This document shows, one piece after another, positions 1,915 through 63,289 of a stretch of DNA of 64,000 bases (its first letter is position 1; every line of letters starts with the position of its first letter). The notes under the pieces were generated by a model, which worked only from the letters and a program-made list of their open reading frames with translations, did no database searches and had not been told where the DNA came from. The stretch lies in NCBI GenBank assembly GCA_015485895.1, contig WFSR01000012.1, forward strand, positions 3,201 to 67,200. The letters are read 5' to 3'. Made by a program: the position numbers and the translations under genes. The stretch comes from Candidatus Microgenomates bacterium (GTDB lineage Bacteria; Patescibacteriota; Microgenomatia; UBA12405; UBA6130).

Positions 1915-1937
1915 TTGTTAAAATTAGTCTAAACAAA

Positions 1938-3204: not shown

Positions 3205-3213
3205 ATTCGATAA

Positions 3214-5962: not shown

Positions 5963-5971
5963 AATCAAAAT

Positions 5972-15702: not shown

Positions 15703-16060
15703 GAAAAAGACTTTTGGAGCCCAGGGCGAATCTTTAGCTGCTCAATTTCTTAAGAAACATAAGCTTACGGTTTTGGATCGTAATTTTCGGACCCCTTGGG
15801 GTGAGCTAGATTTAATTGCCAAGGAAAAGGATACTTTGGTTTTTGTGGAGGTTAAAACTCGGCAAACGGATAAGGCTGGTTACCCTGAAGAGGCAATAAA
15901 GAAATGGAAGGTAAGGCATTTAATCCGGGCTGCTTGGCTCTATACCCAAAAGCATCCCGACTTGCCCAGCCGTTGGCGTTTGGATGTAATTGCTATTCGC
16001 TATTCTGGAGGTCAGCCGGAAATTTGCTGGTACCAAAATATTTCTCCGCTCTTTAGTTAG
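15680..16060 (+). CDS. YraN/UPF0102-family putative endonuclease
   Basis: GAQGESLAAQFLKKHKLTVLDRNFRTPWGELDLIAKEKDTLVFVEVKTR matches the YraN core (GE..A..YL...G..IL.RN.R...GEIDLIA......VFVEVK.R). Start assigned to the ATG at 15680, overlapping the rplS end; the tracked ORF begins upstream at 15623. Confidence 0.65.
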   Translation: MGKRPVFEKKTFGAQGESLAAQFLKKHKLTVLDRNFRTPWGELDLIAKEKDTLVFVEVKTRQTDKAGYPEEAIKKWKVRHLIRAAWLYTQKHPDLPSRWRLDVIAIRYSGGQPEICWYQNISPLFS

Positions 16061-16306
16061 CTGTGTGTGTTGTTGGAGAATGCCAATGTTGGAAGCAGCT
16101 CATGAAGTAAAAAGTGGCTAGTTGAAAGAGAGGAGGAAAATAAACTAGCGATACTTGCTCCGACAAATATGACAAAAGTAACGATGGGTCATTTTTGATT
16201 TACTAATTATTCTAACATAAGGGGTGTTTTTAAAGAAACAAATGGTTATATTAGATTGTATTAATCTATAAAAAAGAAAAGTTATATAATATTTTAATTT
16301 AGAAAA

Positions 16307-16879
16307 ATGCACATGATCAGTCGCGCAAATATTATAATATTTAATGCAGTAAACCATTTTGCAGGAAACAATATTTTTGTAGATAAATTGGGAACACTTA
16401 TCGCACAATATCTGACAATAGTGTTTATATTATTCCTGATTTATTTGTGGTTTAACAAAAATAAAAAATTTGCTTTATACTCTGGATATTCGGCAATACT
16501 AGGGATTTTATTGAATTTCTTAATTACTTCGTTTTATTTCCACCCCAGGCCTTTTATGGATAAGATAGGCACTCTTTTGATTAAACATAAACCAGAAACG
16601 TCATTTCCCTCAGACCATACAACTTTCATGCTATCTATTGCTTTCATGCTCTTGTATTTTAAAAAAACTAGAAAAATAGGCATAGTTCTTTCCATGTTGG
16701 GAATTTTAGGTGGGATCGCAAGGATATTCTGCGGGCTTCATTACCCATTTGATATTCTAGGTTCAAGTCTTGTAGCTTTGGTTTCTTCTTTTATTATTTT
16801 TACCTTTAAAGATAAACTACGGAGATTTAATAATTTAGTTATAAATTTATACTCTAGGATTATAAAAAATGAAAACTAA
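16307..16879 (+). CDS. PAP2-family lipid phosphatase
   Basis: PAP2 motifs SFPSDHT and GLHYPFDILGS (the SGH and SR..H..D signatures) with multiple TM helices. First gene of the second low-GC island. Confidence 0.65.
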   Translation: MHMISRANIIIFNAVNHFAGNNIFVDKLGTLIAQYLTIVFILFLIYLWFNKNKKFALYSGYSAILGILLNFLITSFYFHPRPFMDKIGTLLIKHKPETSFPSDHTTFMLSIAFMLLYFKKTRKIGIVLSMLGILGGIARIFCGLHYPFDILGSSLVALVSSFIIFTFKDKLRRFNNLVINLYSRIIKNEN

Positions 16880-17891
16880 AATCTTTCACAAATATGTAGT
16901 TACACTCTTATTCTCGATTTTATTATTTGCAACTGGAATTAAAATACATTCAGCCTTAACTGCTCCCCAAGTCTCAGATTGGAATTATCACCAACTCCAA
17001 AAAATAGATCATTCTAAAAGGAATTTCTCATTTGCCGTTTTTGGCGATAATAAAAACTCTGTAAAAACATTTGAAAATCTTATATCAAAACTGAACAATG
17101 ATGATGTTCTCTTTGCTATTGATGATGGAGATCTGGTTTGGGATGGAGAGAGGGAAAAATTTAGATTTTTTCTAAATCAGGTTAAGGGTCTTAATAAACC
17201 ACTATTGACTGTTTTTGGCAATCATGAAGCAAAGGGAAACGGAAGAGATGCCTATTACAATTTATTTGGTCAATTTTATTATTCCTATTTCATAGGGAAT
17301 AGTTACTTTATTGTTTTAGACGATTCAAATGAAAAGAATCTTGATGATGCGCAATTTGCTTGGCTAAAAAATGAGCTTAAAAAGAGTCAAAAGTATAAAT
17401 ATCGTTTCGTCTTTATGCATGTTCCCCTCTATGATCCTCAAAATAACAGTACAACAATTCTTGCTCATGCATTAAAGGATAAAATATTTGCTAAAAAACT
17501 GAACGATCTTTTCGATGAAAACAAGGTAACCATGTTGTTTTGTTCGCATATTCATGGTTATTTCCGAGGAAAATGGGGAAAGACTCCGTACATAATTACG
17601 GGTGGCGGTGGCGCGGAGCTAATGGGAACCGACCCAAAACATTATTTTTATCATTATATTAAAGTAAATGTTAATGACAACTCTGTGCATTACGATGTTG
17701 TCAAACTAAAAAGTCCTGATTTTGAGTTATTGGATAGATGGACTCATGATGCTTGGATATACATTTATGCTTTTTTTGCAGTCCATTTTATTGATGCATT
17801 GTTGGTGATAACGCTAATTTATCTCAGTGTGTATATTATTTTCATAAAGAAAAAGTGGCTTGTTTTTAATCTTAAAAGAGATAAAAGGTGA
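16869..17891 (+). CDS. calcineurin-like metallophosphoesterase with C-terminal TM anchor
   Basis: Metallophosphoesterase motifs FAVFGDNKN (GD), DDGDLVWDG (GD-x-V) and FGNHE (GNHE). N-terminal signal/TM segment and a C-terminal hydrophobic tail. Confidence 0.65.
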   Translation: MKTKIFHKYVVTLLFSILLFATGIKIHSALTAPQVSDWNYHQLQKIDHSKRNFSFAVFGDNKNSVKTFENLISKLNNDDVLFAIDDGDLVWDGEREKFRFFLNQVKGLNKPLLTVFGNHEAKGNGRDAYYNLFGQFYYSYFIGNSYFIVLDDSNEKNLDDAQFAWLKNELKKSQKYKYRFVFMHVPLYDPQNNSTTILAHALKDKIFAKKLNDLFDENKVTMLFCSHIHGYFRGKWGKTPYIITGGGGAELMGTDPKHYFYHYIKVNVNDNSVHYDVVKLKSPDFELLDRWTHDAWIYIYAFFAVHFIDALLVITLIYLSVYIIFIKKKWLVFNLKRDKR

Positions 17892-18472
17892 TTAATATCT
17901 TAGCATTTATAACAAGTTTTATTAAAATTTCCAAATACTTTGGTGTTTTTATAGGCACTTTTATTGAAGGACCTACGGTAGGAATGTTAACGGGATCTTT
18001 AGCTAGATTGGGTTATCTAAATATTTACTTAGGTTATTTGGTTTATGTTATAGGGGATTTTACTGCCGATTGTTTATACTATGCAATTGGCTATCATGGT
18101 GGGACAGGCTTGTTAAAAAAACTTACTTTTTCATCAAAAACTTTAGCAAAAGTAAAAAAGAGCATGATCTTCTTTAATAATCATTCAAATAAAATAATCT
18201 TCTTTGGAAAACTGACACATTTCCTCGGATTGCCCATCTTGATAGGTGCCGGCTTAGCTCATTATTCTTGGAGGAAGTTCTTGGTTTTGGATTTAATCGC
18301 TACCTTAATAAAATCTGCTGTAATTATATCAATAGGCTTCTATTTAACATCTTTTTGGGTAGGGATAGACAATGCGATAAACTATGTTGGATTAACCATT
18401 ACCTTTTTGGCCACAATCCTTTTAGTTTATTTTTTAATTAAATTAAGTAACAAAAAGAGAAAGTTACCATGA
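17888..18472 (+). CDS. DedA/VTT-domain membrane protein
   Basis: GVFIGTFIEGPTV...G......GD resembles the DedA re-entrant-loop motif. About 5 TM helices, 194 aa. Confidence 0.5.
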   Translation: MINILAFITSFIKISKYFGVFIGTFIEGPTVGMLTGSLARLGYLNIYLGYLVYVIGDFTADCLYYAIGYHGGTGLLKKLTFSSKTLAKVKKSMIFFNNHSNKIIFFGKLTHFLGLPILIGAGLAHYSWRKFLVLDLIATLIKSAVIISIGFYLTSFWVGIDNAINYVGLTITFLATILLVYFLIKLSNKKRKLP

Positions 18473-19647
18473 AAAAAATTAAAGTATTAATAGCTAGCGA
18501 AACTTATCCACCAGATGTCAATGGCGCTGCAAGATTTACAGAAAATTTAGCTAAAGGCTTGGTATCAAGAGGACATAGCGTTGTGGTTATTGCTCCAGGA
18601 ACAAGATTTAGAGATGAGACAAGCAAGGAAAATATCAATCTTAAGGTATTTAGAATTGCATCAATTTCATTAAAACCTATACATCCCTATTTCAGAGCTG
18701 TTTTTCCAGAGGGTTTATATGGGAAAATTAAAAAAATTATAAAAGATTTTAATCCGGATATTATTCATATTCAGAATCATTTTCTTCTGGGGAGAACCTG
18801 CTTGAAAATAGCCAGAGAAAATGAAATACCTATAATAGGGACGAACCATTTTATGCCAGATAACTTATTAGAATATATACCCAAAATAGCCCATCCTTAC
18901 ATATCAAAGTATATGTGGAGTGATTTTATAAAAGTCTATAGTCAGCTAGATTATGTTACTGTTCCTTCTTATACCGCAGCAAGTATGCTAAAAAGATTAG
19001 GATTAAAAAATCAAGTCAAAGTGATTTCCAATGGGATTGATTTAAAGAAATTTAAGAATGTTAGGGTGAGTAATCGTGTCTACGTTAAATTCAAAATAAG
19101 GAAAGATTTATTTACTTTCATTTTTGTTGGCCGACTTGAGAAAGATAAAAACATTGATTTGGTCCTTGAAGCATCAAAACTGGCTATCAAAAAGAAGCCT
19201 TTTCAGGTTATTATTGTGGGCAAAGGGGCGGATGGGGAAAAACTGCAAAGATTATCAAGAGAATTAGGTTTGGGCAGAGAAATAATTTTTACCGGAGAAG
19301 TAAATAATAGCGAGTTAAATCAATTGCTTAGTTTAGCTCATGCATATATTGCCTCCGGTTCTGCCGAACTTCAGGGGATAGCAGTTATGGAAGCTATGGC
19401 TCATAAACTACCAATCTTAGCTCTTAACGCCGTTGCCTTACCTGAATTGGTTAAAGATGGAGTAAATGGCTTTCTCTTCAAGTTAGATAGCAATGATTTA
19501 GCTAAGAAAATGCTTAAGTTATTATCTCTTGACTCACAAAAATTGAAATTAATGGGCAAAAACAGTTTTGGAATTATTAAGCTACATAGTCAAGAAGAAA
19601 CATTAAAGAAGTTTGAAGATCTTTATAAAAAGGTAATAGGGAGCTAA
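18469..19647 (+). CDS. GT4-family glycosyltransferase
   Basis: EAMAHKLPILALNAVALPELVKDGVNGFLF is the GT4 EX7E region. The N-terminus has the typical GT4 Rossmann start IASETYPPDVNGAARF. Confidence 0.75.
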   Translation: MKKIKVLIASETYPPDVNGAARFTENLAKGLVSRGHSVVVIAPGTRFRDETSKENINLKVFRIASISLKPIHPYFRAVFPEGLYGKIKKIIKDFNPDIIHIQNHFLLGRTCLKIARENEIPIIGTNHFMPDNLLEYIPKIAHPYISKYMWSDFIKVYSQLDYVTVPSYTAASMLKRLGLKNQVKVISNGIDLKKFKNVRVSNRVYVKFKIRKDLFTFIFVGRLEKDKNIDLVLEASKLAIKKKPFQVIIVGKGADGEKLQRLSRELGLGREIIFTGEVNNSELNQLLSLAHAYIASGSAELQGIAVMEAMAHKLPILALNAVALPELVKDGVNGFLFKLDSNDLAKKMLKLLSLDSQKLKLMGKNSFGIIKLHSQEETLKKFEDLYKKVIGS

Positions 19648-19648
19648 C

Positions 19649-20086
19649 TGTTGAGGATCAAATAAACGTTCACACCTTCTGTTGAGTTATCAACACCTTG
19701 TCATCCCGCCCTTTCGTGAGAAAGAGCGGGATCTTCAGGGAGTGTGCCATCAATAATGGTGGTACGCCACCCAGCTGAAGATGAGCCCCCAAAGCTCCGA
19801 CGTGCGTCGGGGCGGGGCGGGCAAGTTCAACATGACGAGATATAAATTAAAAGCACCAAATCCCAAGCACCAATTTCCAAACAAATCCTAAATCCTAATG
19901 ACCCAAATCCTAAACCCCGACGTTCATCGGGGCAGGCAATAACCAAATTACCAAACGATTAAATGACCAAAACAAAAGAAAGATGATAAAGATGTTTTGA
20001 ACATTTGGATTTTGGTCATTTGAACATTATTTAGGATTTAGGATTTTGGTATTGTTTGTAATTTGGTGCTTGGAATTTGGAATTTG
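19649..20086. repeat. copy B of the composite repeat: 5' structured module (19649-19850) plus long imperfect palindrome (19851-20086)
   Basis: The 5' module shares gttgaggatcaaat.aac..tcac...tatcaacac...gtcatcc...ggatct.cag.ga.tgtgc.a.caataat.gtg.tacg.cac...gctgaagatg...atgacgaga.ataaa..aaagcaccaaa with copy C. Palindrome arms run aaagcaccaaat..caagcaccaa...aatcctaaatcctaatgacccaaatcctaaa || tttaggatttaggatt..ttggtgcttggaatttgg, centred near atgttttgaacat. Confidence 0.85.
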
Positions 20087-23567: not shown

Positions 23568-24881
23568 ATGACTAATTGGTTCCAGTGGTTTAAAAACCAG
23601 TTTTTTCATTTACCCCAGGCGATTTTTGCAAATTGGCGCTACGGTTGGCCTAGTCACCATCTTAATTTTATTGGTGTTACTGGAACCGATGGCAAAACAA
23701 CAACTACGCTTTTAATCTATCATCTCTTGCGTGAAGCGGGTCTAGCATCCGGTTATGTTTCTACAATTGCTGCTCATATTGGTGAGGAACATGAGCCAAC
23801 TGGCCTGCATGTAACTTCACCGCCGCCGGCTAAGTTGCAAAAATGGTTAGCGAGGATGGCTCGGGAACAACCAGATAAATGGGTGGTTCTCGAAGCGACT
23901 TCGCATGGTTTGGATCAATACCGTCTTTGGGGTATCCATTTTCAAAAAGCTGTTTTCACTAATTTAACTCATGAGCATCTTGATTACCACCGAACGATGA
24001 AAAATTATTTCCAAGCAAAAATGCGACTTCTTTGCCATGCTGAGCGCCTTTTTATTAATGGCGATTTAGACCAGAAACTTTTAGTAGATGTTAGAAAGAG
24101 GTGCCGTTCGAAAAAAATTTTCTTTTATGGACGAAAGCGGGATAATATTTGGCAGGTGAGAAATGTTCATCTTGAATTTGGGCGGACGGCGTTTGACCTT
24201 TATTTACATCACCAAAAACAAGGGCACTTCCAAAGTAGATTGACAGGTACTTTTAATCTTTATAATCAAGTTGCTGCTTTAGCGACTGTTTTAGACCAAC
24301 ATTTAGTTTCGATTAACCAAGCTAGAACTGCCTTAGGAACTTTTATCCCGCCCCAGGGACGGATGGAAATTGTTGTTCGAGAACCATTTTTGGTAATGAT
24401 TGATTTTGCCCATACTCCCAATGCTTTGGAACAATTGTTGCGCTCCTTACGTCAATTGCATCCTGGCCGGCTTTTGGTGATTTTTGGCGCTGCTGGTGAG
24501 CGAGATCGGGGAAAACGCCCCTTAATGGGGAAAATTGCTGCTCACTGGGCTGATATTGCCGTTTTAACCTCCGAAGATCCGCGTAGCGAAGATCCTCAGG
24601 CTATTATTAAGACCATTGCTCGGGGTTGCCGGCAGGGAAAAATGTGCCGGGCCAAGAAAAAAGATGCCCGGCTAGTGCAACAGGGAAAAAAGAAAAAGGT
24701 CTTTTTCCAAATCGAAAATCGCCAAGAAGCTATTAATTTTGCTTTGCGCCGTTTAGCGCGGCCGGGAGATTTGGTAGTCCTTTGCGGCAAAGGCCATGAA
24801 CAATCTATTTGTTATGGTCATCAAGAATATCCTTGGTCAGAGCACCAGGCGGTTAAAGTAGCGTTGGGGCAGAAACAATGA
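23568..24881 (+). CDS. murE: UDP-MurNAc-L-Ala-D-Glu:diamino-acid ligase with short N-terminal domain
   Basis: P-loop IGVTGTDGKTTTT. The C-terminal motif IFGAAGERDRGKRPLMGKIAAHWADIAVLTSEDPRSEDP aligns to MurE GCGGDRDKGKRPLMG...TDDNPR.E.P. The N-terminal UDP-binding domain is very short, so 437 aa total. Confidence 0.75.
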   Translation: MTNWFQWFKNQFFHLPQAIFANWRYGWPSHHLNFIGVTGTDGKTTTTLLIYHLLREAGLASGYVSTIAAHIGEEHEPTGLHVTSPPPAKLQKWLARMAREQPDKWVVLEATSHGLDQYRLWGIHFQKAVFTNLTHEHLDYHRTMKNYFQAKMRLLCHAERLFINGDLDQKLLVDVRKRCRSKKIFFYGRKRDNIWQVRNVHLEFGRTAFDLYLHHQKQGHFQSRLTGTFNLYNQVAALATVLDQHLVSINQARTALGTFIPPQGRMEIVVREPFLVMIDFAHTPNALEQLLRSLRQLHPGRLLVIFGAAGERDRGKRPLMGKIAAHWADIAVLTSEDPRSEDPQAIIKTIARGCRQGKMCRAKKKDARLVQQGKKKKVFFQIENRQEAINFALRRLARPGDLVVLCGKGHEQSICYGHQEYPWSEHQAVKVALGQKQ

Positions 24882-25630
24882 GGCTAATCTTTTCGCCTTT
24901 TAAGGCTGATTATTGGAGATACCAGTTTCCTTATCAGGTTTTGCTTTGGCGAGAGGCAGGCGACAGTTTAGCAAAAATTTATGCTTTAGGTTTTTTGCCT
25001 TTTCGCCAGCGCCAAGATTTATTTTATTTAAGTCGGAGCTGTCGGAGCAATCTCCGGCGAGGTCAATTTTCTTCAGAAAATCGGCGAATTTTGGCACGGA
25101 CGAAAGGCTTTCACTTTTCCCTGCAGAAAATTAGCCCTCCTTTGTTGCCGGAAAAACAAAAACTCTTGCGTGATTGGGCTCGGGGAGCAGGCTGGGATAT
25201 TAAAACGCCGACCTTAAAGAAGCTTTGGCAGGGAAAATTTTTTAATTATCAGCTGGTTATTAGCTGGCAAAAGCAACCGGTTAGTTATTCTCTTTTGTTA
25301 GTTCAACCACCTATTGCCCATTGGGCCTATGTCTTTTTAAATCCGGAATACCGTCAAAAAAATTTGGCTATTGCCAGTGGATTATTTCTAATTCGCTGGG
25401 CCCGCCAACAAAATTTAGACTATCTTTATTTGGGAACTTGTTATGGGCGTTTGAATTATAAGCGCAATTTTCCCGGCTTAGAATTTTTTAATGGCCTTTA
25501 TTGGTCGGATAATCAGAAGGAATTGCGCTGGCTTTTGCAAGAAAATTGGTCAGGCTACCTTTGGCAGGATACGGGGTGGCGCCAGAAATTAGAACGGTGG
25601 TTGGCAAAAACAGACAAAGAGAAGGGTTAA
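24878..25630 (+). CDS. Bpt/ATE-like (arginyl/leucyl-tRNA-protein transferase C-terminal-like) protein
   Basis: GTCYGRLNYKRNFPGLEFFNGLYW fits the ATE_C signature G.Y...C.KM.YK..F.P.E......W as I recall it. 250 aa, with start ATG overlapping the murE stop. Confidence 0.35.
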   Translation: MRLIFSPFKADYWRYQFPYQVLLWREAGDSLAKIYALGFLPFRQRQDLFYLSRSCRSNLRRGQFSSENRRILARTKGFHFSLQKISPPLLPEKQKLLRDWARGAGWDIKTPTLKKLWQGKFFNYQLVISWQKQPVSYSLLLVQPPIAHWAYVFLNPEYRQKNLAIASGLFLIRWARQQNLDYLYLGTCYGRLNYKRNFPGLEFFNGLYWSDNQKELRWLLQENWSGYLWQDTGWRQKLERWLAKTDKEKG

Positions 25631-27028
25631 ATGAAGAAAAAGAAAGTTTATATCATTGGGATTGTGGGGACCATTGGTACCGGGTTGGCCCGAGCTTTTA
25701 AGAAAGCAGGGTGGAAGGTTAGCGGGTCGGACCAGGAAAATGTCTTCCCCCCTTTAACAACCGCTCTAGCTCGGGCAAAAATTCCTTTTTATCGGGGTTA
25801 TGCTGCTCATCATGTTCCTCGGGATGCTGATTTGGTTTTGGTAGGCGGCAGCGCTTTGGTAATCGATCGCCACAACCCGGAATATTTGCAGGCGCAAAAA
25901 TATCATTTGCCTATTCTTAACCACGCTGAGGCGATAGCCCGTTTTGTGGTGAAAAAAAATTCTCTGGTAGTGGCTGGTAGTTATGGCAAGACAACAATCA
26001 CTTCTCTGTTGGTAACCATTTTAAAAGAAGCTCACTATCGGCCGGCTTATATGATTGGTGGCTGGCCACTTAACCGTTGGCCATCATTAGCTTTTTCTGA
26101 AAGCAATTGGTCGATAGTGGAGGGTGATGAGTATTGGATTAACCCGGAAAAACCTCAAGCTAAATTTTTTCTTTATCATCCCCATTATCTTTTGCTTACC
26201 GCGGCCCATTGGGAGCACCCTGATGTCTACTCTCGGCCAGAACTGTATTATCAAGCTTTCCAAAAGCTAGTTCGTTTAGTACCTAGCAATGGTTTAGTGG
26301 TAGCCAATTATTTTGGTGAACATTTAGATTTCCTTCGTCATCGGCAACAGGTGGTGTGGTATTCGAGCCAAAAAGGTAAAGGTGATTGCTTCCTGGCAGC
26401 TTGGCAGCCCCGTTCTCAGAGAATGCAAATAACGGTGAATTGCCAGGGCACAAAAGTTCTTTTTCAATCTCCTCTTTTGGGCAAGCATAATGCTGAAAAT
26501 ATTGTTGCGGCAGTGACCATGGCTCATCATCTGGGTATTAGCTGGCCGGTAGTTAGAAAGGCAATTAGTAAAGCTAAAGGGGTAAAAAGGCGGTTAGAAT
26601 ATCAAGGCACTATTGGGGGAATTACGATTTTTGAGGATTTTTCCCAGACTCCACCGCGGATTAAGGCAGCTTTGCAGGCTCTACGAGATCATTTTCCTCA
26701 GCGGCGCATTTTGGTAGTTTTTTATCCCCACTATAGTGGTTGGCGAGATAAATCTATTTTGAGGGGAATAAAAGGGCTTTTCGGTTTGGCTAATAAAGTT
26801 TGGCTGACGCGAGTCCATTTCGACCGCCGGCCGGCAGCGGAAAGGGTAACTGGTCCGTTAATTGCTAAAGCTTTGGGGGGCGCAAATATTGAATATTGTC
26901 CCGATGACCGAATTCTTGAAAAGAAAGTAAAACAAGAACTTCGGCCTGGCGATGTTTTGGTTTTTATGTCTTCGGGCGGTTTGCGGGGTCTAAAAGAAAG
27001 AGTTATTAATTTTCTAGAGCATCGTTAA
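25631..27028 (+). CDS. murC: UDP-N-acetylmuramate:L-alanine ligase (MurC/Mpl type)
   Basis: N-terminus YIIGIVGTIGTGLARAF (cf. MurC HFIGIGGSGMSGLA), P-loop AGSYGKTTITS, EGDEY (cf. MurC EADESD), and GKHNAENIVAAV (cf. G.HNV.NALAA). Confidence 0.7.
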   Translation: MKKKKVYIIGIVGTIGTGLARAFKKAGWKVSGSDQENVFPPLTTALARAKIPFYRGYAAHHVPRDADLVLVGGSALVIDRHNPEYLQAQKYHLPILNHAEAIARFVVKKNSLVVAGSYGKTTITSLLVTILKEAHYRPAYMIGGWPLNRWPSLAFSESNWSIVEGDEYWINPEKPQAKFFLYHPHYLLLTAAHWEHPDVYSRPELYYQAFQKLVRLVPSNGLVVANYFGEHLDFLRHRQQVVWYSSQKGKGDCFLAAWQPRSQRMQITVNCQGTKVLFQSPLLGKHNAENIVAAVTMAHHLGISWPVVRKAISKAKGVKRRLEYQGTIGGITIFEDFSQTPPRIKAALQALRDHFPQRRILVVFYPHYSGWRDKSILRGIKGLFGLANKVWLTRVHFDRRPAAERVTGPLIAKALGGANIEYCPDDRILEKKVKQELRPGDVLVFMSSGGLRGLKERVINFLEHR

Positions 27029-28347
27029 TGGCCCAATTTATTATTCATGGCCAAAAGCCGTTGCGCGGTGAGGTAGTTATTCGGGGAGCTAAAAATTCTG
27101 GTTTTAAATTGCTTATTGCCTCACTTTTTGGGTGTCAAGAGTCACTCTTTAGCAATGTGACCAAAGCTGGAGAAACGAAGATTACCCTTTCTCTTATCAA
27201 ATATTTGGGTGCTAATTTTCATTGGGTAGGCGAGCACAGTGTCTTGGTAGATCCTCGAGGTTTGCAGCATTATCAACTACCGCTAGGGGTAGGCAGAGAA
27301 ACGCGGGCCAGTATTCTTTTCGTTCCAGTTTTACTTTATCGTTTCGGCCGGGTTCGGGTGCCATGGCCGGGGGGTGATAAGATTGGCCGCCGGCCTTTAG
27401 ATCGCCATTTAGCCGGGTTGCAAAAGATGGGAGTTCACATCAAGCAGAGTAAACAATCTTTGGAATTTTTTGCCCCTCACCGCCTAGAGGGAACTCGTTA
27501 TCGCTTTGCTAAAAATACCCACACTGGTACTGATACCCTTTTGATGGCCGCACTTTGGGCCAAAGGAGAAACAGTTTTGGAAAATGCTGCTGCTGAGCCA
27601 GAAGTGGATGATCTTATCCATTTTCTTAATAAACTCGGTGGCCAGGTAAGGCGAATATCTCCACGTACTATCGTTATTCATGGACGACAAAAATTTCGGG
27701 GAGCTGAACATATTGTTATTCCCGATCGTAACGAGGCGGTTACTTTTGCTTGTGCTGCTTTGGGTACTAAAGGTGAGGTAGATATTTTTAATATTAATCC
27801 TAATCATCTTTATGCTTTTATCAAACAGCTGCGGATGATTGGAGCCGGTTTAGAGATTGGTGTTAACGAGATGAAAGTGGCTTGGCGAGAGCACCTGCAT
27901 GCAAGCAAAATAGAGACGGCTCCCTACCCTGGCTTTATGACCGATTGGCAGGCACTATGGGTAGTTTTAATGACCCAGGTGTGGGGGACTAGCGAGGTGA
28001 TAGAAAGGATTTTCCCTTACCGCTTTCAATACGTTCCATATCTCCAAAAAATGGGGGCAAGAGTTAAATTCTTCCAACCTCAGGTAATTAATCCCAAGAA
28101 TTACTATAACTTTAATCTAGAGGATGACCAACCGCAATTTCATCACGGCATTTACATCAGCGGCCCGACTCGCTTAAAAGGGACAACGATGACCGTCAAC
28201 GATATTCGTGCTGGGGCTACTCTTACTTTAGCGGCCTTAATGGCTAAAGGCAAAAGTGTTTTGCGGCGAGCTGAAAAAATAGATCGTGGTTATGAACACT
28301 TGGCTAGCAGGCTTCAACAGTTAGGAGGTGACATTATTAGGATATGA
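27028..28347 (+). CDS. murA: UDP-N-acetylglucosamine 1-carboxyvinyltransferase
   Basis: [34 protein letters not shown] is the classic MurA N-terminus. 439 aa with the EPSP-synthase-like fold. Confidence 0.9.
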
Positions 28348-29612
28348 TAATTACTTTAAAAAATGATCTCCTCTTTTACTCCCATCTTCCACTTTGGAAG
28401 CGTTTCTATCATCTAGGGGAAAGATATTTAGCTAAATTATGGTCACAGTTACATCGCCCCCGGGCTGTGGTGATGATAACCGGTAGCTATGGTAAAACCT
28501 CAACAACTTACATTTTAAGCAGAACCCTGGATAAAGCTGGTGGATCCTTGGTAACTGATCGTAATCTTGACACCATCTTCAATCTGCCACAGACTATTCT
28601 TCGTTGGCGCTGGCCACCGTGGATTGTTTTGGAAACAGGGATTGATCATCCTCAAGAAATGGATTTTCATCTCCGTCTCATTAAGCCAACGGTGGTAATT
28701 TTTACCGGGATAACACCTGTTCATGCCGATAAGCAATTGTTGGGATCCAAAATAGGGATTTGGCGAGAGAAAACCAAATTAGTTCGGGCTCTACCAACTG
28801 ACGGTCTGCTTATTTATAATGCTGATGACCTTCTAGCTTGCCGGGCGGCCCGAATTTTTTCTGGTGAGAAAAGAAGCTATTCTCTGAAGCAGAAACATGG
28901 AGATTATTGGCTAGCTAAGAGTAAAATTACCCCTCAGGGGAGCCAGTTTTGGTTAACTACTGCTTTTTCACGGCAGCAAGTAAAAATAAAAACGCCTCTT
29001 TTAGGCAAACATTTTGCCCAATCATTTTTAGCTACGCTGGCCTTTTTGGATTTCTACCATTTGTCGCGATCGCTTTTAGTTAATGCCGCTAGTCAGCTTA
29101 AACCTTTACCAGGGCGTTTATCGTTACAACCTTTTCTCAATGGTAGTTGGCTTTTGGATGATAGCCGGCGCTCTAACCCGGCGTCGGCTAAAGCTGGTCT
29201 AGCCTTAATCACCACCTTAAGATCACACTATCGGCGCCTTATTGTGGTTATGGGGGAGATGGGAGAATTAGGCCGTTATGCTCGGCAGGAACACCGGCGG
29301 CTCGGGCGACAACTGGCTAAATTAAAACCGGATATTTTGATTGGCATTGGTCCTTTAATGCGGCTAGCTCTTAAGGAGGCCCCGGGATTAACTAGTCTTT
29401 GGGCTGATAATCCCACCACCGCTGGCGAACTATTTTTGCAGAAATATTCCCCTCAGGAAGGCGATCTTTTTTATCTCAAAGCTTCTCTTTTGCGCCATCT
29501 GGAACGATTCCGTTATGTGCTAGAGGGAAGGCAAGTTGCCTGCCGGCGACCCGCTTGCCATTATTATCACGATTGCTCGCAATGCGATAAACTGAATGAA
29601 GAAAGGGGGTGA
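28344..29612 (+). CDS. murF: UDP-MurNAc-tripeptide:D-Ala-D-Ala ligase with Cys-rich C-terminal tail
   Basis: P-loop VVMITGSYGKTSTT and LDDSRRSNPASAKAGL (cf. MurF DDSYNANP.SM.AAL). A C-terminal extra segment ACRRPACHYYHDCSQCDKL carries 5 Cys. Confidence 0.7.
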   Translation: MIITLKNDLLFYSHLPLWKRFYHLGERYLAKLWSQLHRPRAVVMITGSYGKTSTTYILSRTLDKAGGSLVTDRNLDTIFNLPQTILRWRWPPWIVLETGIDHPQEMDFHLRLIKPTVVIFTGITPVHADKQLLGSKIGIWREKTKLVRALPTDGLLIYNADDLLACRAARIFSGEKRSYSLKQKHGDYWLAKSKITPQGSQFWLTTAFSRQQVKIKTPLLGKHFAQSFLATLAFLDFYHLSRSLLVNAASQLKPLPGRLSLQPFLNGSWLLDDSRRSNPASAKAGLALITTLRSHYRRLIVVMGEMGELGRYARQEHRRLGRQLAKLKPDILIGIGPLMRLALKEAPGLTSLWADNPTTAGELFLQKYSPQEGDLFYLKASLLRHLERFRYVLEGRQVACRRPACHYYHDCSQCDKLNEERG

Positions 29613-29618: not shown

Positions 29619-29876
29619 ATGCCACCACTTGATTTAAATGACGCTCTAGCGATGGGCGACAAAGAAAAAAATTTGGCCCGGGCTCGGCAATCACTGATCG
29701 AAGAGCTAGACGCGATTAATCTTTATGAAGAACGGATTCAGGCCACTCAAGATGAAGAATTGAAAAAAGTGCTAGCTCACAACCGAGATGAAGAAAAAGA
29801 ACACGCTGCAATGCTTATTGACTATTTACGCCGCCACGATCCTGTTTTTAAGCGGATGTTTACAGAGCACGATTAA
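29619..29876 (+). CDS. small ferritin-like (ExxH half-site) protein
   Basis: 85 aa, predicted helical. EELDAINLYEERI...DEEKEHAAMLIDYL contains an E...ExxH pattern like ferritin-like/rubrerythrin half sites. Last gene before repeat copy C. Confidence 0.3.
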   Translation: MPPLDLNDALAMGDKEKNLARARQSLIEELDAINLYEERIQATQDEELKKVLAHNRDEEKEHAAMLIDYLRRHDPVFKRMFTEHD

Positions 29877-29892
29877 TAAGAATAGCGGGTAA

Positions 29893-30283
29893 GTGTTGAG
29901 GATCAAATGAACACTCACGCCCTCTACCAGCAGCTATCAACACTTCGTCATCCTGAACTTGGTTCAGGATCTCCAGAGAATGTGCTACCAATAATAGTGA
30001 TACGACACTCGGCTGAAGATGCTGAGCTAAACTCAGTATGACGAGAATAAAAGCACCAAATTGCAAACAAATTCTAAATCCTAATGACCCAAATCCTAAA
30101 CAAATCCAAAATTCAAATGATCAAATGACCAAAACAAAAGAGAAAGAATAAAGAAAAAAAGAAAGAAGAAAAAGAAATGTTTTGAACATTTGGATTTTGG
30201 CCATTTGGTATTGTTTAGGATTTAGAATTTAGGTAATTAGGATTTATTTGGTTATTGGAATTTGGTGCTTGGAATTTAATTTG
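29893..30283. repeat. copy C of the composite repeat: 5' module (29893-30048) plus long palindrome (30049-30283)
   Basis: Same architecture as copy B, between the ferritin-like gene and mraY. The central region carries an A/G-rich expansion (agagaaagaataaagaaaaaaagaaagaagaaaaag). Confidence 0.85.
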
Positions 30284-30300
30284 GGGTGTTATACTAATTT

Positions 30301-31338
30301 ATGGAATTTATTTACTTAGGCTTAGTATTGTTCTCTTTCTTCGTTAACTCTCTCCTTTTTATTCCTTTTATAAATTTACTTTATCGTTGGCATTTTGTCC
30401 GCCGCCGACAAATTACCCGTGATTTCCAAAATAAAAGGGCAATTATTTTCGATAAGTTGCATGCTCATAAGGCCGGCACTCCGGTAGGAGGAGGGCTCCT
30501 CATGCTAGTAACTATTTTAAGTCTTCAATTTGTTCTCCTTCCGGTTTTAAAAATATACGACCGCCAAAACTTCTATAGTGCTTACCGTTTTATTGACGAA
30601 GCTAACATTGTTTTTTTTACAATGATTTCCTTTGGTGCGTTAGGTTTTTACGATGACATTATGAAATTTTTCGGTTTTGAGAAGAGTGGCTTTTTTGGTC
30701 TCCGGATGCGTCATAAGTTCATCCTCCAATGGGCTCTAGCTTTTATTATTGCGGCAATGCTCTATTTCAACTTAGGGATTAATTTTATCTATCTTCCTTT
30801 TTACCATGTAATTCATTTGGGATACGGTTATATTTTATTGGCGGCTACCCTAATTGTTTGGTTGGCAAATGCTTTTAATATTACCGATGGCCTCGACGGG
30901 CTATCAAGCGGTTTGCTTTTGATCTTTTTGCTTACTTTTTGGGTTATTTCCTCCCAAGTGTTTGATACCTTTTTAGGGGTTTTCATTGCTCTCTGGGTAG
31001 GTGCAGTTTTAGCTTTTCTCTATTTCAACATTGCCCCTGCTCGTCTCACATTAGGTGATATTGGTGCCTTAGCTTTCGGGGCTACTATTGCCGTGGTTGG
31101 TCTCTTAACAGGGAAGATCTTGGCAGTTCTAATAGTAGGTGCAATTTTTAACCTTGAGGGGCTTTCAAGCTTTCTACAAATTATCAGTAAAGCCTGGCGT
31201 CATCGGAAGTTATTCCCTGCAGCTCCGCTTCATCTTTGGTTACAATATCGAGGTTGGCCGGAAACCAAAATTGTTATGAGGACTTGGGTGGTGGGCATAG
31301 TTTTTGCCATTTTAGGCCTCTGGCTTTCTTTCCTTTAA
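30301..31338 (+). CDS. mraY: phospho-N-acetylmuramoyl-pentapeptide transferase
   Basis: NAFNITDGLDGLSSGL (MraY DDxxD-equivalent motif), about 10 TM helices, and a GALAFG...LGD segment. Confidence 0.9.
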   Translation: MEFIYLGLVLFSFFVNSLLFIPFINLLYRWHFVRRRQITRDFQNKRAIIFDKLHAHKAGTPVGGGLLMLVTILSLQFVLLPVLKIYDRQNFYSAYRFIDEANIVFFTMISFGALGFYDDIMKFFGFEKSGFFGLRMRHKFILQWALAFIIAAMLYFNLGINFIYLPFYHVIHLGYGYILLAATLIVWLANAFNITDGLDGLSSGLLLIFLLTFWVISSQVFDTFLGVFIALWVGAVLAFLYFNIAPARLTLGDIGALAFGATIAVVGLLTGKILAVLIVGAIFNLEGLSSFLQIISKAWRHRKLFPAAPLHLWLQYRGWPETKIVMRTWVVGIVFAILGLWLSFL

Positions 31339-31563
31339 TTATTTTTCCTCTTCAAGAATAGCAGTTTTAAAAGGTTTAAGGGAAGTTATCTCTAATTCTG
31401 TTCCACAGTATTGACATTCCACAATATCTCCCACAGCTACGGTGCTCAGATCGATAGTAATAGGGTGATGGCAGTCAGGGCACTTGATAGTTTTTTTCAT
31501 TTTACATTTTAGGCTATAATACTTTAATGGTTGTATTTTAGCAATGAAATTTTTGAAAAGCAA
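31339..31563 (-). CDS. LysW-like zinc-ribbon protein (putative amino-group carrier protein)
   Basis: MKKTIKCPDCHHPITIDLSTVAVGDIVECQYCGTELEITSLKPF fits the LysW pattern CP.C...(n)..GE(I/V).EC..CGAELE(V/I).SL.P. The C-terminal tail is acidic (AILEEEK) but lacks the canonical EDWGE end. 74 aa. Confidence 0.45.
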   Translation of the reverse strand: MLFKNFIAKIQPLKYYSLKCKMKKTIKCPDCHHPITIDLSTVAVGDIVECQYCGTELEITSLKPFKTAILEEEK

Positions 31564-32377
31564 GAAAACTTCTCTAATTTTTTACCATGGTTTTTATTTA
31601 AAAAGAGAAGACCAACAATTATCGGGTTCAGTGAAAGATAGGGGAATAGTTGAGCAGTTGCGCCACCTTCCTAAAACTACCAATGAGGTAGTGATTAGCT
31701 CCTCGGGAAATGCGGGAATTAGCCTGGCTTTTTGGAGCCAGCGGTTAGGCTTAACGGCACACGTTTTTGTCAGCCCTAACCTTTCTCCAGGAAAGAAAAA
31801 ATATCTCCAAGAATTGGGAGCTAAGCTTTATGTTACCCCTCGACCTTTGAGTGGAAGTATTCGTTTTGCTCGCCGGTATAATTTTCCCCATCTACGTCAG
31901 TCTATTAGTTCTTGGGCGAGGTACGGTTTTCAATCTTTAGGAGAAGAATTAAAAATGGAAATTAATCCCGAAGTGATTTTTTTCCCAGTGAGCAGCGGGA
32001 CCACTCTTTTGGGAGTTAGCGATATTTGGAGAAGTACTAAGAAGAAGCCTGTTTTTGTGCTGGTTCAAACGGCTGGCCATTGCCCTCTGGCGCGCCATTT
32101 AGTGTCTTGTCCACCAGCAGAACCGAATGATTTAGCTACTGCTTTAGTCGCTAGGTATATTCCTAATGAGAGAGAGATTCTAGCTCTAATTAAAAAGTAT
32201 GGCCAGGCGGTGGTAGTTACTAATACAGAAATTATGGAGGCTTGGCGATGGCTAAAGCAAGGGGGAATAATTACTTCTTTTGAGGGGGCTGCTGCCGTAG
32301 CTGCAGCTCGGCAAATAAAAGCTGATCAACATTGGCAGCGATCAGTTTGCTTGCTAACGGGTAAGTATTATGGTTAA
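31544..32377 (+). CDS. PLP-dependent enzyme, fold type II (Trp-synthase-beta/Cys-synthase/Thr-synthase superfamily)
   Basis: REDQQLSGSVKDRG is the PLP-lysine motif (S/T)GS(F/V)KDRG. VISSSGNAGISLAF is the glycine-rich loop. SFEGAAAVAAARQ is the C-terminal EPSSAAA-like motif. At 277 aa it is a minimal version. Confidence 0.65.
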   Translation: MKFLKSKKTSLIFYHGFYLKREDQQLSGSVKDRGIVEQLRHLPKTTNEVVISSSGNAGISLAFWSQRLGLTAHVFVSPNLSPGKKKYLQELGAKLYVTPRPLSGSIRFARRYNFPHLRQSISSWARYGFQSLGEELKMEINPEVIFFPVSSGTTLLGVSDIWRSTKKKPVFVLVQTAGHCPLARHLVSCPPAEPNDLATALVARYIPNEREILALIKKYGQAVVVTNTEIMEAWRWLKQGGIITSFEGAAAVAAARQIKADQHWQRSVCLLTGKYYG

Positions 32378-33677
32378 TCTCCGGGCCCCGATTTTCTATT
32401 TAGGAATGGATTTTTATCAAGGTTTACCTGGTTTCTGGTTTTTTCCTAATTATTACTTAATAACTTATCGCGCCCATCCGGTTATTAAGAAATTACCTTT
32501 TGCTAACCGCATCTTTACTCTCGGCGACAAAACAACTAAAGTTATTCCCCGCAGTAGCGGGCATTTGCTTAACCATCCCTTGGTACAGAAATTTATCATC
32601 CGCCATACGCGGGGAGATAAAGTATTTTTAACTTTCTTTAAGCCAAGTAGAAAGATAGAGATTATTGCCCAGAAAAAAGGCTGGCGATTAATTGGAAATC
32701 GCCAGGCGTTGGCGAAAAGATTAGAAAATAAAATTCAACTCTGGCAGTTATTGCATCGGTACCCGGAGGTGCATTTTCCACCGGTTCAGGTGGAAAAGCT
32801 AGGAGGATTGAATTATCGGGTCCTGGCGCAACAATATAAGGGATGCTTTGTCCTACAGTTAGGGCTTGGTTGGGCAGGTCGTTCAACTTTTAAGGTATGT
32901 TCCGCAAAAGAATTTGTACGATTACAGCAAAAATACCCTAAACAATGGGTAAAGATAACGCCATTCTTTTTAGGGTGGACGCTTACTAACAATAATGTAG
33001 TAACCCCAACAGGAGAAGTTTATTCTTCTTATCTGGCTTGGCAAATTACCGGCCAGAAGATGTTATGTCCAGGTTTACCAATGGCAACTTGCGGTCGGGT
33101 ATGGGCAGTGTCGCCGGGTAAGCAGCTGGAAAATAATGCTAAAAAAATTAGCCAATTCATCGGCTTTTGGTTACATAAGCAAGGATTTCGGGGTTTTTTT
33201 GGTCTTGATTTTTTGCTTACTTCAAACGGCCAACTTTATTTCCAAGAGCTAAATCCTCGCCTAACGGCCTCGGCAGCGTTTAGTGCTTTAAGTGAGTTGA
33301 AGCAAAAGCTTAGGCCATTGTTGTTTTATCACTATGCTAGTTTCTTACCTTTAAAGGTGAAAAATCAGTGGCAGAGATCTAAATTGCAAGGGGGCGAAAT
33401 AGTCTCAAGGGCTCCTTCTCAACGAATTATTAAAAAAAGTGTCGCAAGTGGCGCTTATAATTTTCAAAAACAATACCTGGGAGCTCATTTCTTTCCTTCG
33501 CAGGAATGGATCACTTTTATAGGGGGTTATCGAGGGGAAAAAATTTATTCCGGCAGTGAGGTTTTTCGCCTTTCCGGTTGGGGTAAATTAGGCGAGTGGC
33601 AAGGTCAAAATTTTCGGCTTGCCTCGCCTTACCGTAATTTTTATTATTGGATAAAACAATATTATGGAAAAGCGTAA
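32370..33677 (+). CDS. ATP-grasp family ligase of unknown specificity (LysX/RimK-like or divergent D-Ala-D-X ligase-like)
   Basis: The C-terminal region GFFGLDFLLTSNGQLYFQELNPRLTAS matches the ATP-grasp G(R).DF......G.....E.N..P(G) block, comparable to Ddl GRVDFFL..DG.LYLNEINT.PG. The central KVCSAKEF is a candidate ATP-binding Lys region. 435 aa. Confidence 0.5.
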   Translation: MVNLRAPIFYLGMDFYQGLPGFWFFPNYYLITYRAHPVIKKLPFANRIFTLGDKTTKVIPRSSGHLLNHPLVQKFIIRHTRGDKVFLTFFKPSRKIEIIAQKKGWRLIGNRQALAKRLENKIQLWQLLHRYPEVHFPPVQVEKLGGLNYRVLAQQYKGCFVLQLGLGWAGRSTFKVCSAKEFVRLQQKYPKQWVKITPFFLGWTLTNNNVVTPTGEVYSSYLAWQITGQKMLCPGLPMATCGRVWAVSPGKQLENNAKKISQFIGFWLHKQGFRGFFGLDFLLTSNGQLYFQELNPRLTASAAFSALSELKQKLRPLLFYHYASFLPLKVKNQWQRSKLQGGEIVSRAPSQRIIKKSVASGAYNFQKQYLGAHFFPSQEWITFIGGYRGEKIYSGSEVFRLSGWGKLGEWQGQNFRLASPYRNFYYWIKQYYGKA

Positions 33678-34743
33678 TCAAAAACTTATCAAATGGTTGT
33701 TACTTTTTTTAGCCTTATTTGCCATTTTAGGCATTTTTTTCATTGGCGATATCTCTCTAGCGGAAGCACGCTTGCATTTTCACGATTCTCTCTATTTCGT
33801 CAAAAGGCAAACATTTTGGCTAGTTTTAAGTTTAATTACTCTTGGTTTACTTTGGCAGTTGCCGGTGACATTTTGGCGGCGAGCAAGCTTAATTTTTTAT
33901 CTGCTAAGTGTACTCGGTTTAGGTCTGGTGCTTATTCCGGGGATAGGCAAGGAAATTTGGGGTGCGCACCGTTGGTTAGCTATTGGCTCTCTAGCATTTC
34001 AGCCAGCAGAATTAATGAAGCTTGCCTTTTTGCTTTATCTTAGCATTCTTTTATCGAGGCAAGGTAAAATATCGCTAAAAGTTTTTCTTTCTATCCTTTT
34101 ATTGCCAATCGCCTTAATAGCTTTAGAACCAGATTTAGGCACGATTATAATCTTGGTAAGCTTAGCGGGAGCAATGTATTTTGTAGCGGGTGTTCGTTGG
34201 CACCTTTTCATAATATTATTATTTTTAAGCCTTACCGCTGGGGGCATTTTCATCTTTAGTTCCTCCTATCGTCGTCAACGGCTTCAGGGCTTTTTTGATC
34301 CCTTTGCGGACCCTTTAAATAAAACTTATCATGCTTACCAGTTGGTTTTAACTTTACACCGCGGTGGCTTCTGGGGTAGTGGTTTGGGCCAGTCACGACA
34401 GAAATACCAAAACCTTCCCCAGGTAACCACAGATTCTATTCTGGCCGTTATTGGAGAGGAAATAGGTTTTGCAGGTTTGACAGTTATTCTAATACTTTAC
34501 CTTTTGGGCATTTATTTGATATTTTTCCTTGCTGCTAAATCCAATAATCCGTTAACTTATTATTACGGTGTGGGTTTTGGTAGCTGGCTAGCTACGCAAG
34601 GATTTTTAAACGCTGGGGCAGTGGCGATTGTATTACCTTTTACCGGAGTGCCATTCCCCCTAATTTCTTATGGAGGATCATCTCTGGTATCTATTGTATT
34701 AGGGGTGGGATTATTTCTTAAATTTTTAACTACCACCACATGA
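33664..34743 (+). CDS. ftsW: SEDS-family peptidoglycan glycosyltransferase (FtsW position)
   Basis: About 10 TM helices. The C-terminal PFPLISYGGSSLVSIVLGVGL is the SEDS signature. Located between the ATP-grasp gene and murG. Confidence 0.8.
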   Translation: MEKRNQKLIKWLLLFLALFAILGIFFIGDISLAEARLHFHDSLYFVKRQTFWLVLSLITLGLLWQLPVTFWRRASLIFYLLSVLGLGLVLIPGIGKEIWGAHRWLAIGSLAFQPAELMKLAFLLYLSILLSRQGKISLKVFLSILLLPIALIALEPDLGTIIILVSLAGAMYFVAGVRWHLFIILLFLSLTAGGIFIFSSSYRRQRLQGFFDPFADPLNKTYHAYQLVLTLHRGGFWGSGLGQSRQKYQNLPQVTTDSILAVIGEEIGFAGLTVILILYLLGIYLIFFLAAKSNNPLTYYYGVGFGSWLATQGFLNAGAVAIVLPFTGVPFPLISYGGSSLVSIVLGVGLFLKFLTTTT

Positions 34744-49168: not shown

Positions 49169-49203
49169 AAGGCAGGTGCTCTGCCAGCTGAGCTACGGGC
49201 GCA
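49130..49203 (-). tRNA. tRNA-Lys (anticodon TTT)
   Basis: Reverse complement gcgcccg tagctcagctggcagagc acctgc cTTTTAAg cagagggtc gggggttcgaatccctc cgggcgc a. Anticodon loop cuUUUaa. Paralog of the CTT copy at 63603. Confidence 0.8.
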
Positions 49204-58652: not shown

Positions 58653-58660
58653 AACTACGG

Positions 58661-58734
58661 TGTCCCCGGGGGGATTCGGACCCTCGACCTTCCCGTTAGA
58701 AGCGGGACGCTCTTTCCGACTGAGCTACGGGGAC
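58661..58734 (-). tRNA. tRNA-Arg (anticodon TCT)
   Basis: Reverse complement gtccccg ta gctcagtcggaaagagc g tcccg cTTCTAAc ggga aggtc gagggtccgaatccccc cggggac a. Anticodon loop cuUCUaa. Confidence 0.8.
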
Positions 58735-58739
58735 TTGGG

Positions 58740-58813: not shown

Positions 58814-58817
58814 ATGG

Positions 58818-58890: not shown

Positions 58891-58891
58891 G

Positions 58892-61994: not shown

Positions 61995-63289
<1,295 letters not shown>

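Follow-up and report, generated by a model that had tools for sequence, protein, structure and literature searches.

A conserved LysW-type carrier, PLP enzyme and ATP-grasp ligase encoded among peptidoglycan-precursor genes of Microgenomates bacteria, and a possible role in tailoring a stem-peptide amino acid

What do three genes foreign to the standard peptidoglycan pathway do between mraY and ftsW, in the place usually taken by murD? The question is raised by a 64,000-nucleotide stretch of a Candidatus Microgenomates genome (assembly GCA_015485895.1, contig WFSR01000012.1, positions 3,201 to 67,200; hereafter the window), which holds the division and cell-wall (dcw) cluster of this ultrasmall member of the Candidate Phyla Radiation (CPR, Patescibacteria). 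An earlier note, made from the sequence alone, had drawn attention to the three open reading frames (ORFs), and they are indeed present, flanked by MraY and FtsW (Table 1). They encode a small zinc-ribbon protein of the LysW family on one strand and, on the other, a fold-type II pyridoxal-phosphate (PLP) enzyme and an ATP-grasp ligase. The trio is a genuine conserved unit tied to peptidoglycan-precursor genes. Judged from its sequences, it may be central to a pathway in which an amino acid of the peptidoglycan stem peptide is tailored on a carrier protein, in connection with the MurD step, at which the second residue enters; we give this reading a probability of roughly 40%. A carrier pathway that makes or tailors a cell-wall amino acid was among the possibilities raised in the earlier note, and it is the reading that we prefer.

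The small protein is a true LysW homologue with a non-canonical acidic tail. It passes the Pfam family Zn_ribbon_LysW (PF21344) at 38.9 bits against a gathering score of 27, and matches LysW chains in the PDB (5k2m_E, E=3.9e-6; 3wwl, E=7e-5), while staying under the curated LysW equivalog cutoffs (32.3 vs 53.2 for TIGR01206, the profile against which the earlier note had proposed to check it, and 28 vs 75 for NF041070). Two CxxC cysteine pairs are conserved across homologues. The mechanically called ORF begins at TTG and is the 74-aa form described at the outset, but homologues are called at 50-59 aa, so the true gene is almost certainly the 53-aa form (MKKTIKCPDC...ILEEEK); the LysW assignment thus stands and the length does not. 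The most striking feature of the system is the invariant C-terminal lysine on a LysW scaffold. In 77 distinct homologues, the last residue is K in 77/77, both -2 and -3 are E in 76/77, and position -5 is L, I or V throughout, giving the pattern [LIV]-x-E-E-K, so that the acidic ending first seen in the window is general. In canonical LysW the tail is EDWGE, and the substrate sits on the gamma-carboxyl of its terminal Glu; this tail was not found in any of the 77 homologues. The carrier stop codon abuts that of mraY, and the short divergent region between the carrier and PLP genes has candidate promoters on both strands: a consensus TATAAT box (+ strand) about 25 nt 5' of the ATG of the PLP gene, and a promoter-like consensus match on the - strand (31544..31516) facing the carrier gene.

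The PLP enzyme, correctly recognised earlier from its lysine motif, yields a confident AlphaFold2 model (predicted local distance difference test score, pLDDT, 95.7). Its best NCBIfam matches are short threonine synthases, yet it reaches 91.7 bits against a cutoff of 301 for NF005035 and 31.6 against 167 for TIGR00260, and all curated ThrC cutoffs are missed by a wide distance, which led us to reject an identity as threonine synthase. When the family profile was compared with the PDB, ThrC (1.5e-27), serine dehydratase-like proteins (5e-26) and serine racemase (4e-23) followed closely on one another, and Foldseek gave template modelling (TM) scores of 0.83-0.87 alike to ThrC, threonine deaminase, serine/aspartate racemase and CysK. 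With so near a tie among threonine synthases, Ser/Thr dehydratases, Ser/Asp racemases and cysteine synthases, the type of reaction is unreadable from homology. All PLP-binding motifs are conserved: across 47 sequences, K31, S54-G55-N56 and S150-S151-G152-T154 vary little or not at all. The enzyme falls in its own clade of at least 105 sequences, mainly from Microgenomates and many from Gottesmanbacteria, and it is coupled to the carrier and the ligase in all cases. It is best described as a threonine-synthase-like fold-type II enzyme of a separate clade.

The ligase matches the Pfam ATP-grasp family below threshold (17.9 bits), and its AlphaFold2 model (pLDDT 94) has the three-domain fold and E-x-N metal site of the ATP-grasp superfamily, to which it belongs; the fold is not that of a Mur ligase. 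Structural comparison placed PurK (24.9), the Streptomyces ATP-grasp peptide ligase 8ynd (24.2), biotin carboxylase and PurT (23.7 each), PylC with bound L-lysine (23.6), BesA (23.4), PGM1 (22.8) and LdmS (21.0) ahead of the L-amino-acid ligases (18.6-20.4), Ddl (18.5), LysX and ArgX (16.7 and 16.1), RimK (15.7) and the graspetide ligases (12-14). The predicted structure thus puts the ligase in a PurK/biotin carboxylase/PurT/PylC/BesA group, and since this group stands ahead of Ddl, LysX and RimK, the ligase is not of LysX, RimK or Ddl type. The structural distance rules out a graspetide or RimK/TTL-type ligase, and as to Ddl itself the protein is not a member of Dala_Dala_lig / TIGR01205. The ATP-grasp fold proposed in the earlier note is therefore borne out, whereas its "Ddl/LysX-like block" proves to be the general ATP-grasp E-x-N-P-R metal site in a protein that is more carboxylase- or PurK-like. 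The structural neighbours either work on a nucleophile that a protein arm presents, as biotin carboxylase does, or couple the carboxylate of an amino acid to an amine, which in PylC is the epsilon-amine of lysine. Residues K121, K195, D280, E293, N295, R297 and H321, among others, are invariant in the family.

How widely is the trio found, and in what company? A word-indexed protein search returned 39 relatives of the ligase, a profile search of 1.84 billion cluster representatives returned 3493 at E<=1e-3 and 893 at E<=1e-30, and a scan of one genome per GTDB species returned 141, mostly from Shapirobacteria, Gottesmanbacteria and Woesebacteria. We fetched 91 related loci in all, 80 of them from the GTDB scan with 10-kb flanks; their genes were taken from our own ORF calls and labelled by phmmer against seed proteins, with Pfam and NCBIfam checks on selected genes. 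The fetched relatives are labelled Shapirobacteria, Gottesmanbacteria, Woesebacteria, Microgenomates or Patescibacteria, and many are mislabelled "uncultured Gammaproteobacteria"; the closest to the window at the species level are Candidatus Shapirobacteria metagenome-assembled genomes (62% identity for the ligase, 75% for the PLP enzyme). The order and orientation carrier(-)/PLP(+)/ATP-grasp(+) are kept in essentially every related locus of sufficient length, an arrangement far beyond chance. Of 80 loci, 54 have a PLP gene that overlaps or directly adjoins the ligase gene, and in 41 of these it does so by exactly 4 or 8 nt; the overlap is 8 nt in the window, where the end of the ligase gene also overlaps ftsW by 14 nt.

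The neighbourhoods fall into a few types. In the clade of the window (10 loci) the order is MurA-MurF-MraY-[trio]-FtsW. Most Shapirobacteria (34 loci) have MurC-MurA-MraY-[NlpC/P60-like gene]-[trio]-FtsW with murF absent from the cluster, and three loci (L018, L019, L022) have MurB-MurA-Ddl-MurF-MraY-[NlpC/P60-like]-[trio]-FtsW. In Gottesmanbacteria and others the module lies outside the dcw cluster, directly behind a MurD homologue in the order [NlpC/P60-like]-MurD-[trio] (11 loci: L008, L009, L023, L026, L028, L030-L034, L078). MurD is the best model for each of the four module-adjacent ligases that were scored against TIGR01087 (cutoff 212; L008 213, L078 249.5, L028 184.5 and L009 171 bits), and the remaining seven carry the MurD label by best phmmer match to the seed proteins. 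Two divergent loci have the trio among MurB, Ddl, a MurF-like ligase and MraY (L010) and among FtsW, MurG, MraY and FemAB (L011). Both of these distant, module-bearing loci also conserve a pair made up of an alpha/beta-hydrolase gene and a divergent MurF-like ligase that matches the Mur_ligase_M domain alone.

A fourth component, overlooked in the earlier note, is an NlpC/P60-type amidase of about 200-250 aa encoded upstream of the carrier in most related loci. Its G-I-D-C-S-G cysteine motif and one histidine never vary, and it matches NlpC/P60 (PF00877) or Amidase_6 weakly to moderately, and, since an N-terminal hydrophobic segment is absent from all 59 sequences inspected for one, is taken to be a cytoplasmic cysteine amidase. 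It is present in 37 of the 47 dcw-type loci (murF being absent from 34 of these clusters and both genes present in 3) and in the MurD-adjacent loci. Three proteins have this amidase fused to the C-terminus of the ligase (L011, P0203, P0248), five have a more canonical NlpC/P60 domain fused to the ligase (P0027, P0030, P0251, P0272, P0282), and in P0183 the PLP enzyme and the ligase are one protein. Independent fusions of this Rosetta-stone type, with two kinds of NlpC/P60 domain, argue that every component serves a single flow of substrate. A carrier, a ligase to load it, an enzyme to tailor the load and a hydrolase to release it together follow the logic of a LysW system.

From these parts we infer an attachment site, an amino acid, a PLP reaction and a role for the amidase, as follows. 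The ATP-grasp enzyme would convert a free amino acid, at its carboxylate, to an acyl phosphate and pass the acyl group to the epsilon-amino group of the C-terminal lysine of the carrier, a type of chemistry known from PylC and from the D-aspartate ligase of enterococci. The carrier would serve as a swinging arm much as the biotin carboxyl carrier protein does for biotin carboxylase. The tethered amino acid would keep its alpha-amino group free and so be a substrate for the PLP enzyme; the step we prefer would be inversion at C-alpha, turning L-Glu bound through its gamma-carboxyl into D-Glu. The cytoplasmic amidase would then free the product for MurD, and the net outcome would be a one-way, ATP-driven supply of D-glutamate. 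The polarity of this scheme, reversed with respect to LysW, is suggested by the terminal lysine together with a PylC/biotin carboxylase-like ligase; attachment through the carboxylate is suggested also by the need of PLP chemistry for a free alpha-amine, which a LysW-style amine linkage would block. NlpC/P60 enzymes typically cut gamma-D-glutamyl amide bonds, and this, together with the travelling of the module with murD, makes L-Glu bound via the gamma-carboxyl the preferred substrate. In the clade of the window, where no amidase gene is adjacent, release would have to fall to a gene elsewhere, or the tethered product would be used directly. So specific a version of the carrier pathway, with a lysine tether and D-Glu as product, is rather unlikely to be right. 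The broader claim, that a LysW turned carboxyl-group carrier gives these bacteria an ATP-driven way of making a peptidoglycan D-amino acid (D-glutamate) on a protein tether, the first of its kind, and that it stands in for glutamate racemase across a whole superphylum, we hold to be similarly improbable.

Several points weigh against this scheme. The PLP enzyme is about equally far from threonine synthases, dehydratases, racemases and cysteine synthases, so racemisation is one option of several, and to our knowledge no fold-type II glutamate racemase has been described. Attachment could instead be to the gamma-carboxyl of the penultimate Glu, in the manner of LysW, or to the terminal alpha-carboxyl. 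A carrier and one ATP per D-Glu are a costly way to do what MurI does, and the 10 loci of the window clade have no amidase in the cluster, with no homologue in the 64 kb window at E<1e-3.

Could the trio instead replace MurD where it stands, as the earlier note suggested, the ATP-grasp enzyme ligating a second residue made by the PLP enzyme onto UDP-MurNAc-L-Ala? The module does fill the mraY-ftsW slot in all 47 dcw-type loci, none of which has murD within 10 kb. The clusters of L018, L019 and L022 encode every cytoplasmic peptidoglycan step except MurD, with MurA, MurB, MurC, Ddl, MurF, MraY and MurG in one cluster, and among the 49 scanned ORFs of at least 110 aa in the window we found no match to the MurD, Ddl, MurI, Alr or NlpC/P60 families, in line with the lack of murD and ddl first remarked upon; nor did the few kb of contig just outside the window ends hold MurD, Ddl, MurI, Alr or the amidase. 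The same ligase, however, lies behind a genuine murD in the 11 loci described above, and its invariant residues are identical across MurD-adjacent loci, amidase-type loci and the window clade, position 343 (E vs Q) being the sole systematic difference between contexts. Moreover, murF is likewise missing from 34 of the 47 clusters and Mur ligase genes often lie elsewhere in these genomes, so absence of murD from the cluster is weak evidence of its absence from the genome, and replacement would give neither the amidase nor the invariant tail of the carrier anything to do. A simple substitution for MurD is thus downgraded and now seems quite improbable. Still harder to credit, and in our view scarcely worth entertaining, is a remnant of the canonical LysW/LysX pathway of lysine or arginine biosynthesis, or a substitute for Ddl or alanine racemase that makes a D-Ala-D-Ala-type dipeptide. 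The homology of the carrier to LysW and the lack of ddl in the window speak for it; the missing EDWGE tail, the score under the TIGR01206 cutoff and the type of the ligase largely refute it, as do the neighbours, LysZ, LysY, LysJ and LysK not being found near the module in the loci examined. Replacement of Ddl fails because canonical Ddl (344-354 bits) shares a cluster with the module in L018, L019 and L022, and also in L010.

A more serious competitor, which we regard as possible though doubtful, keeps the carrier and changes the chemistry: the PLP enzyme would carry out a beta- or gamma-replacement in the manner of CysK, SbnA or threonine synthase, and its nucleophile or substrate would be either the epsilon-amine of the carrier lysine or an amino acid bound to the carrier. 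This would yield a cell-wall amino acid of a non-canonical kind, either a diamino-dicarboxylic acid (diaminopimelic acid, lanthionine or a lysinoalanine type) or a branch residue that is a D-amino acid or beta-substituted. Loading or reloading of the carrier would fall to the ATP-grasp enzyme, and the amidase would release the product for use by MurE or a side-chain ligase, as with Rac/Asl of Enterococcus faecium. Threonine synthase heads the profile matches of the PLP family and shares with it K84 and a Q175-type motif, CysK, SbnA and O-ureidoserine synthase are equally near in fold, and CPR bacteria are generally described as lacking amino-acid biosynthesis. The MurE of the window keeps an Arg in its DNPR-equivalent motif (EDPR), which is compatible with a substrate that bears a distal carboxylate, and an aminoacyl-tRNA-transferase-like gene in the same cluster suggests that stem-peptide decoration occurs here. 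The neighbourhood link, on the other hand, is to murD and not murE, the module moving with murD in the Gottesmanbacteria-type loci; no known pathway requires a carrier for such replacements, and the loci examined have no conserved neighbour that would supply a second substrate, for example a serine kinase or acetyltransferase. Very improbable, in turn, is that the ATP-grasp enzyme modifies the E-E-K tail itself, by RimK- or TTL-like addition or a graspetide-like Glu-Lys lactam, so that the small protein would be the end product, akin to a ribosomally synthesised and post-translationally modified peptide, with a regulatory or structural purpose in division. An invariant tail would fit such a purpose, but it would not account for the translational coupling of the PLP enzyme, for the fusions of the ligase with that enzyme and with the amidase, or for the linkage to murD.

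Table 1. Positions of the module, its flanks and other features discussed in the text. Coordinates are those of the window unless a locus is named; aa, amino acids.
Feature	Position	Strand	Remarks
MurE	23568-24881	+	437 aa
ATE_C/GNAT-like protein	24878-25630	+	250 aa; between murE and the murC-like gene
MurC-like ligase	25631-27028	+	
MurF-like ligase	28344-29612	+	422 aa
murF-mraY interval with EncFtn-like gene	29619-30300		EncFtn, 85 aa, 95 bits
MraY	30301-31338	+	flank 5' of the trio
LysW-family zinc-ribbon carrier	31339..31500	-	53 aa (MKKTIKCPDC...GDIVECQYCGTELEITSLKPFKTAILEEEK); four Cys; C-terminal E-E-K
Carrier ORF as called mechanically	31339-31563	-	74 aa
Divergent intergenic region, carrier/PLP genes	31501..31543	.	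43 nt
Fold-type II PLP enzyme	31544..32377	+	277 aa; PF00291 148 bits; PLP lysine K31 in SGSVKDRG; SSSGN substrate loop
ATP-grasp ligase	32370..33677	+	435 aa; E293, N295, R297 metal/phosphate site in ELNPRLTAS; GFFGLDF motif
FtsW	33664-34743	+	flank 3' of the trio
tRNA-Lys	49128-49202		overlaps the mechanical 3' end of a PolX-like ORF
Transglutaminase-core protein	54664-56487	+	607 aa; 21 kb from the trio
tRNA array	58659-58975	-	four tRNAs: Arg, His, Pro, Leu; spacers 1-5 nt
tRNA array	63215-63676	+	six tRNAs: Val, Phe, Gly, Gly, Gln, Lys; spacers 1-5 nt
Low-GC stretches	1-6000; 16001-20000		GC 0.31-0.35 vs 0.40-0.48 elsewhere in the window
NlpC/P60-like amidase (examples)	L019 7375-8085; L028 5729-6412; L087 8409-8939		
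Alpha/beta-hydrolase and MurF-like pair	L010 15070-17209; L011 16601-18759		

The cluster around the trio has some peculiarities of its own. Its + strand order is MraZ, MraW, an FtsI-type penicillin-binding protein, MurE, the ATE_C/GNAT-like protein, the MurC-like ligase, MurA, the MurF-like ligase, the EncFtn-like protein and MraY, followed after the trio by FtsW, MurG, an FtsQ-like protein, FtsA, FtsZ and RodA. The ATE_C/GNAT-like protein resembles the C-terminal domain of arginyl-tRNA-protein transferases slightly under the cutoff (24 bits), and nearly all dcw-type relatives keep its gene in the same place; it may be a transferase that draws on aminoacyl-tRNA to branch the stem peptide, in the manner of Fem proteins. 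MurE and the MurF-like ligase both lack the N-terminal domain, which in model enzymes holds the UDP part of the substrate: their matches begin at profile positions 72/472 and 64/418, there is no upstream space for the missing part, and the corresponding ligases of relatives are just as short. The MurC-like ligase lies under the curated cutoffs (247 vs 335 bits for MurC, 207 vs 389 bits for Mpl), and its substrate could be L-Ala or a preformed peptide. The EncFtn-like gene, which encodes an encapsulated-ferritin-like protein, is followed by a 424-nt gap that has no Rfam match; it is restricted to the closest relatives of the window (L001, L002, L012), and no encapsulin shell gene was seen among the window ORFs scanned with Pfam.

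Farther from the trio, the window encodes a protein with a transglutaminase core. Gamma-glutamyl-epsilon-lysine bonds are made or cut by this papain-like fold, and the protein could conceivably substitute for the missing amidase, although its gene lies 21 kb away. Two stretches of low GC content hold nucleotide-salvage genes (Ham1, thymidylate-synthase-like, HD, dNK), glycosyltransferases, PAP2 and a VTT-domain protein, and are possibly acquired islands. An Rfam scan of the window gave matches to tRNAs alone, among them the two tightly packed arrays of Table 1.

What would the module mean for the cell wall? No part of peptidoglycan synthesis is considered more uniform than the provision of D-glutamate and the early cytoplasmic steps, with MurD2/MurL as the one known alternative, and here a four-protein module has a fixed place within the dcw cluster in a large uncultivated lineage. 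If the carrier reading is correct, the LysW principle would extend from lysine and arginine synthesis to the cell wall, probably with a new attachment chemistry, and reversed polarity, if true, would make the protein a new kind of carrier. The scoring of CPR peptidoglycan pathways as "complete" or "incomplete" would then change as well. A search of the LysW literature, in combination with peptidoglycan, CPR or ATP-grasp, turned up no description of this module, which is best classed as a relative of the amino-group-carrier-protein systems that differs from them in its tail and its enzymes and has a new role in the cell.

Comparison with known systems brings out what is shared and what is particular. 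The LysW/LysX (ArgX) systems of Thermus, Sulfolobus and Thermococcus have a homologous acidic zinc-ribbon carrier of about 53 aa with a flexible C-terminal tail, a dedicated ATP-grasp partner and a hydrolase that frees the product, and they work on a protein-tethered amino acid. The module differs in that its tail is E-E-K with a terminal Lys rather than EDWGE with a terminal Glu, its tailoring enzyme is of PLP fold-type II with no kinase, reductase or aminotransferase, its hydrolase is NlpC/P60 rather than an M20 peptidase, and its context is peptidoglycan rather than lysine/arginine synthesis. For the individual enzymes there are other parallels. PylC (PDB 4ffl), of pyrrolysine biosynthesis, acylates the epsilon-amine of L-lysine with an amino-acid carboxylate, the bond that we propose for the ligase, but the two share 9% identity, and PylC acts on free lysine and has no relation to the cell wall. 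Glutathionylspermidine synthetase/amidase fuses an amide-forming ATP-grasp domain to a papain-like amidase (CHAP, of the NlpC/P60 superfamily) that cuts the same kind of bond, although its domain order is the opposite of that in the module fusions, its substrates are small molecules, and it has neither carrier nor PLP enzyme. The PLP enzyme has in common with ThrC, serine/threonine dehydratase, serine/aspartate racemase, CysK and SbnA the fold, the PLP lysine motif, the SxGN loop and the PLP-phosphate loop; it is set apart by its shorter length, its low score (92 vs 301 bits), its mainly Microgenomates clade and its coupling to a carrier and a ligase.

Two further systems serve peptidoglycan synthesis. 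The Racfm/Aslfm gene pair of Enterococcus faecium (Bellais et al. 2006) reportedly combines an amino-acid-inverting enzyme with an ATP-grasp ligase to feed peptidoglycan precursors, the Aslfm ligase being said to couple an amino-acid carboxylate to the epsilon-amine of lysine; the pair is described as having no carrier or amidase, a PLP-independent racemase and UDP-MurNAc-pentapeptide as acceptor. MurD2/MurL of Xanthomonas, encoded beside a murD homologue, achieves an ATP-consuming, unidirectional L-to-D epimerisation of tethered glutamate (PMC8788868). The module would follow the same logic with different proteins, standing as it does beside a murD-type ligase and, if our reading of its function is right, performing an ATP-driven, one-way inversion of tethered glutamate in lineages that, like those with MurD2/MurL, would be without the ordinary D-Glu enzymes. 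The tether of MurD2/MurL is UDP-MurNAc-L-Ala, and its epimerase is cofactor-less, of unknown fold, and forms AMP (PMC8788868), whereas the module would reach the same end with a protein carrier, a PLP enzyme and an ADP-forming ATP-grasp ligase.

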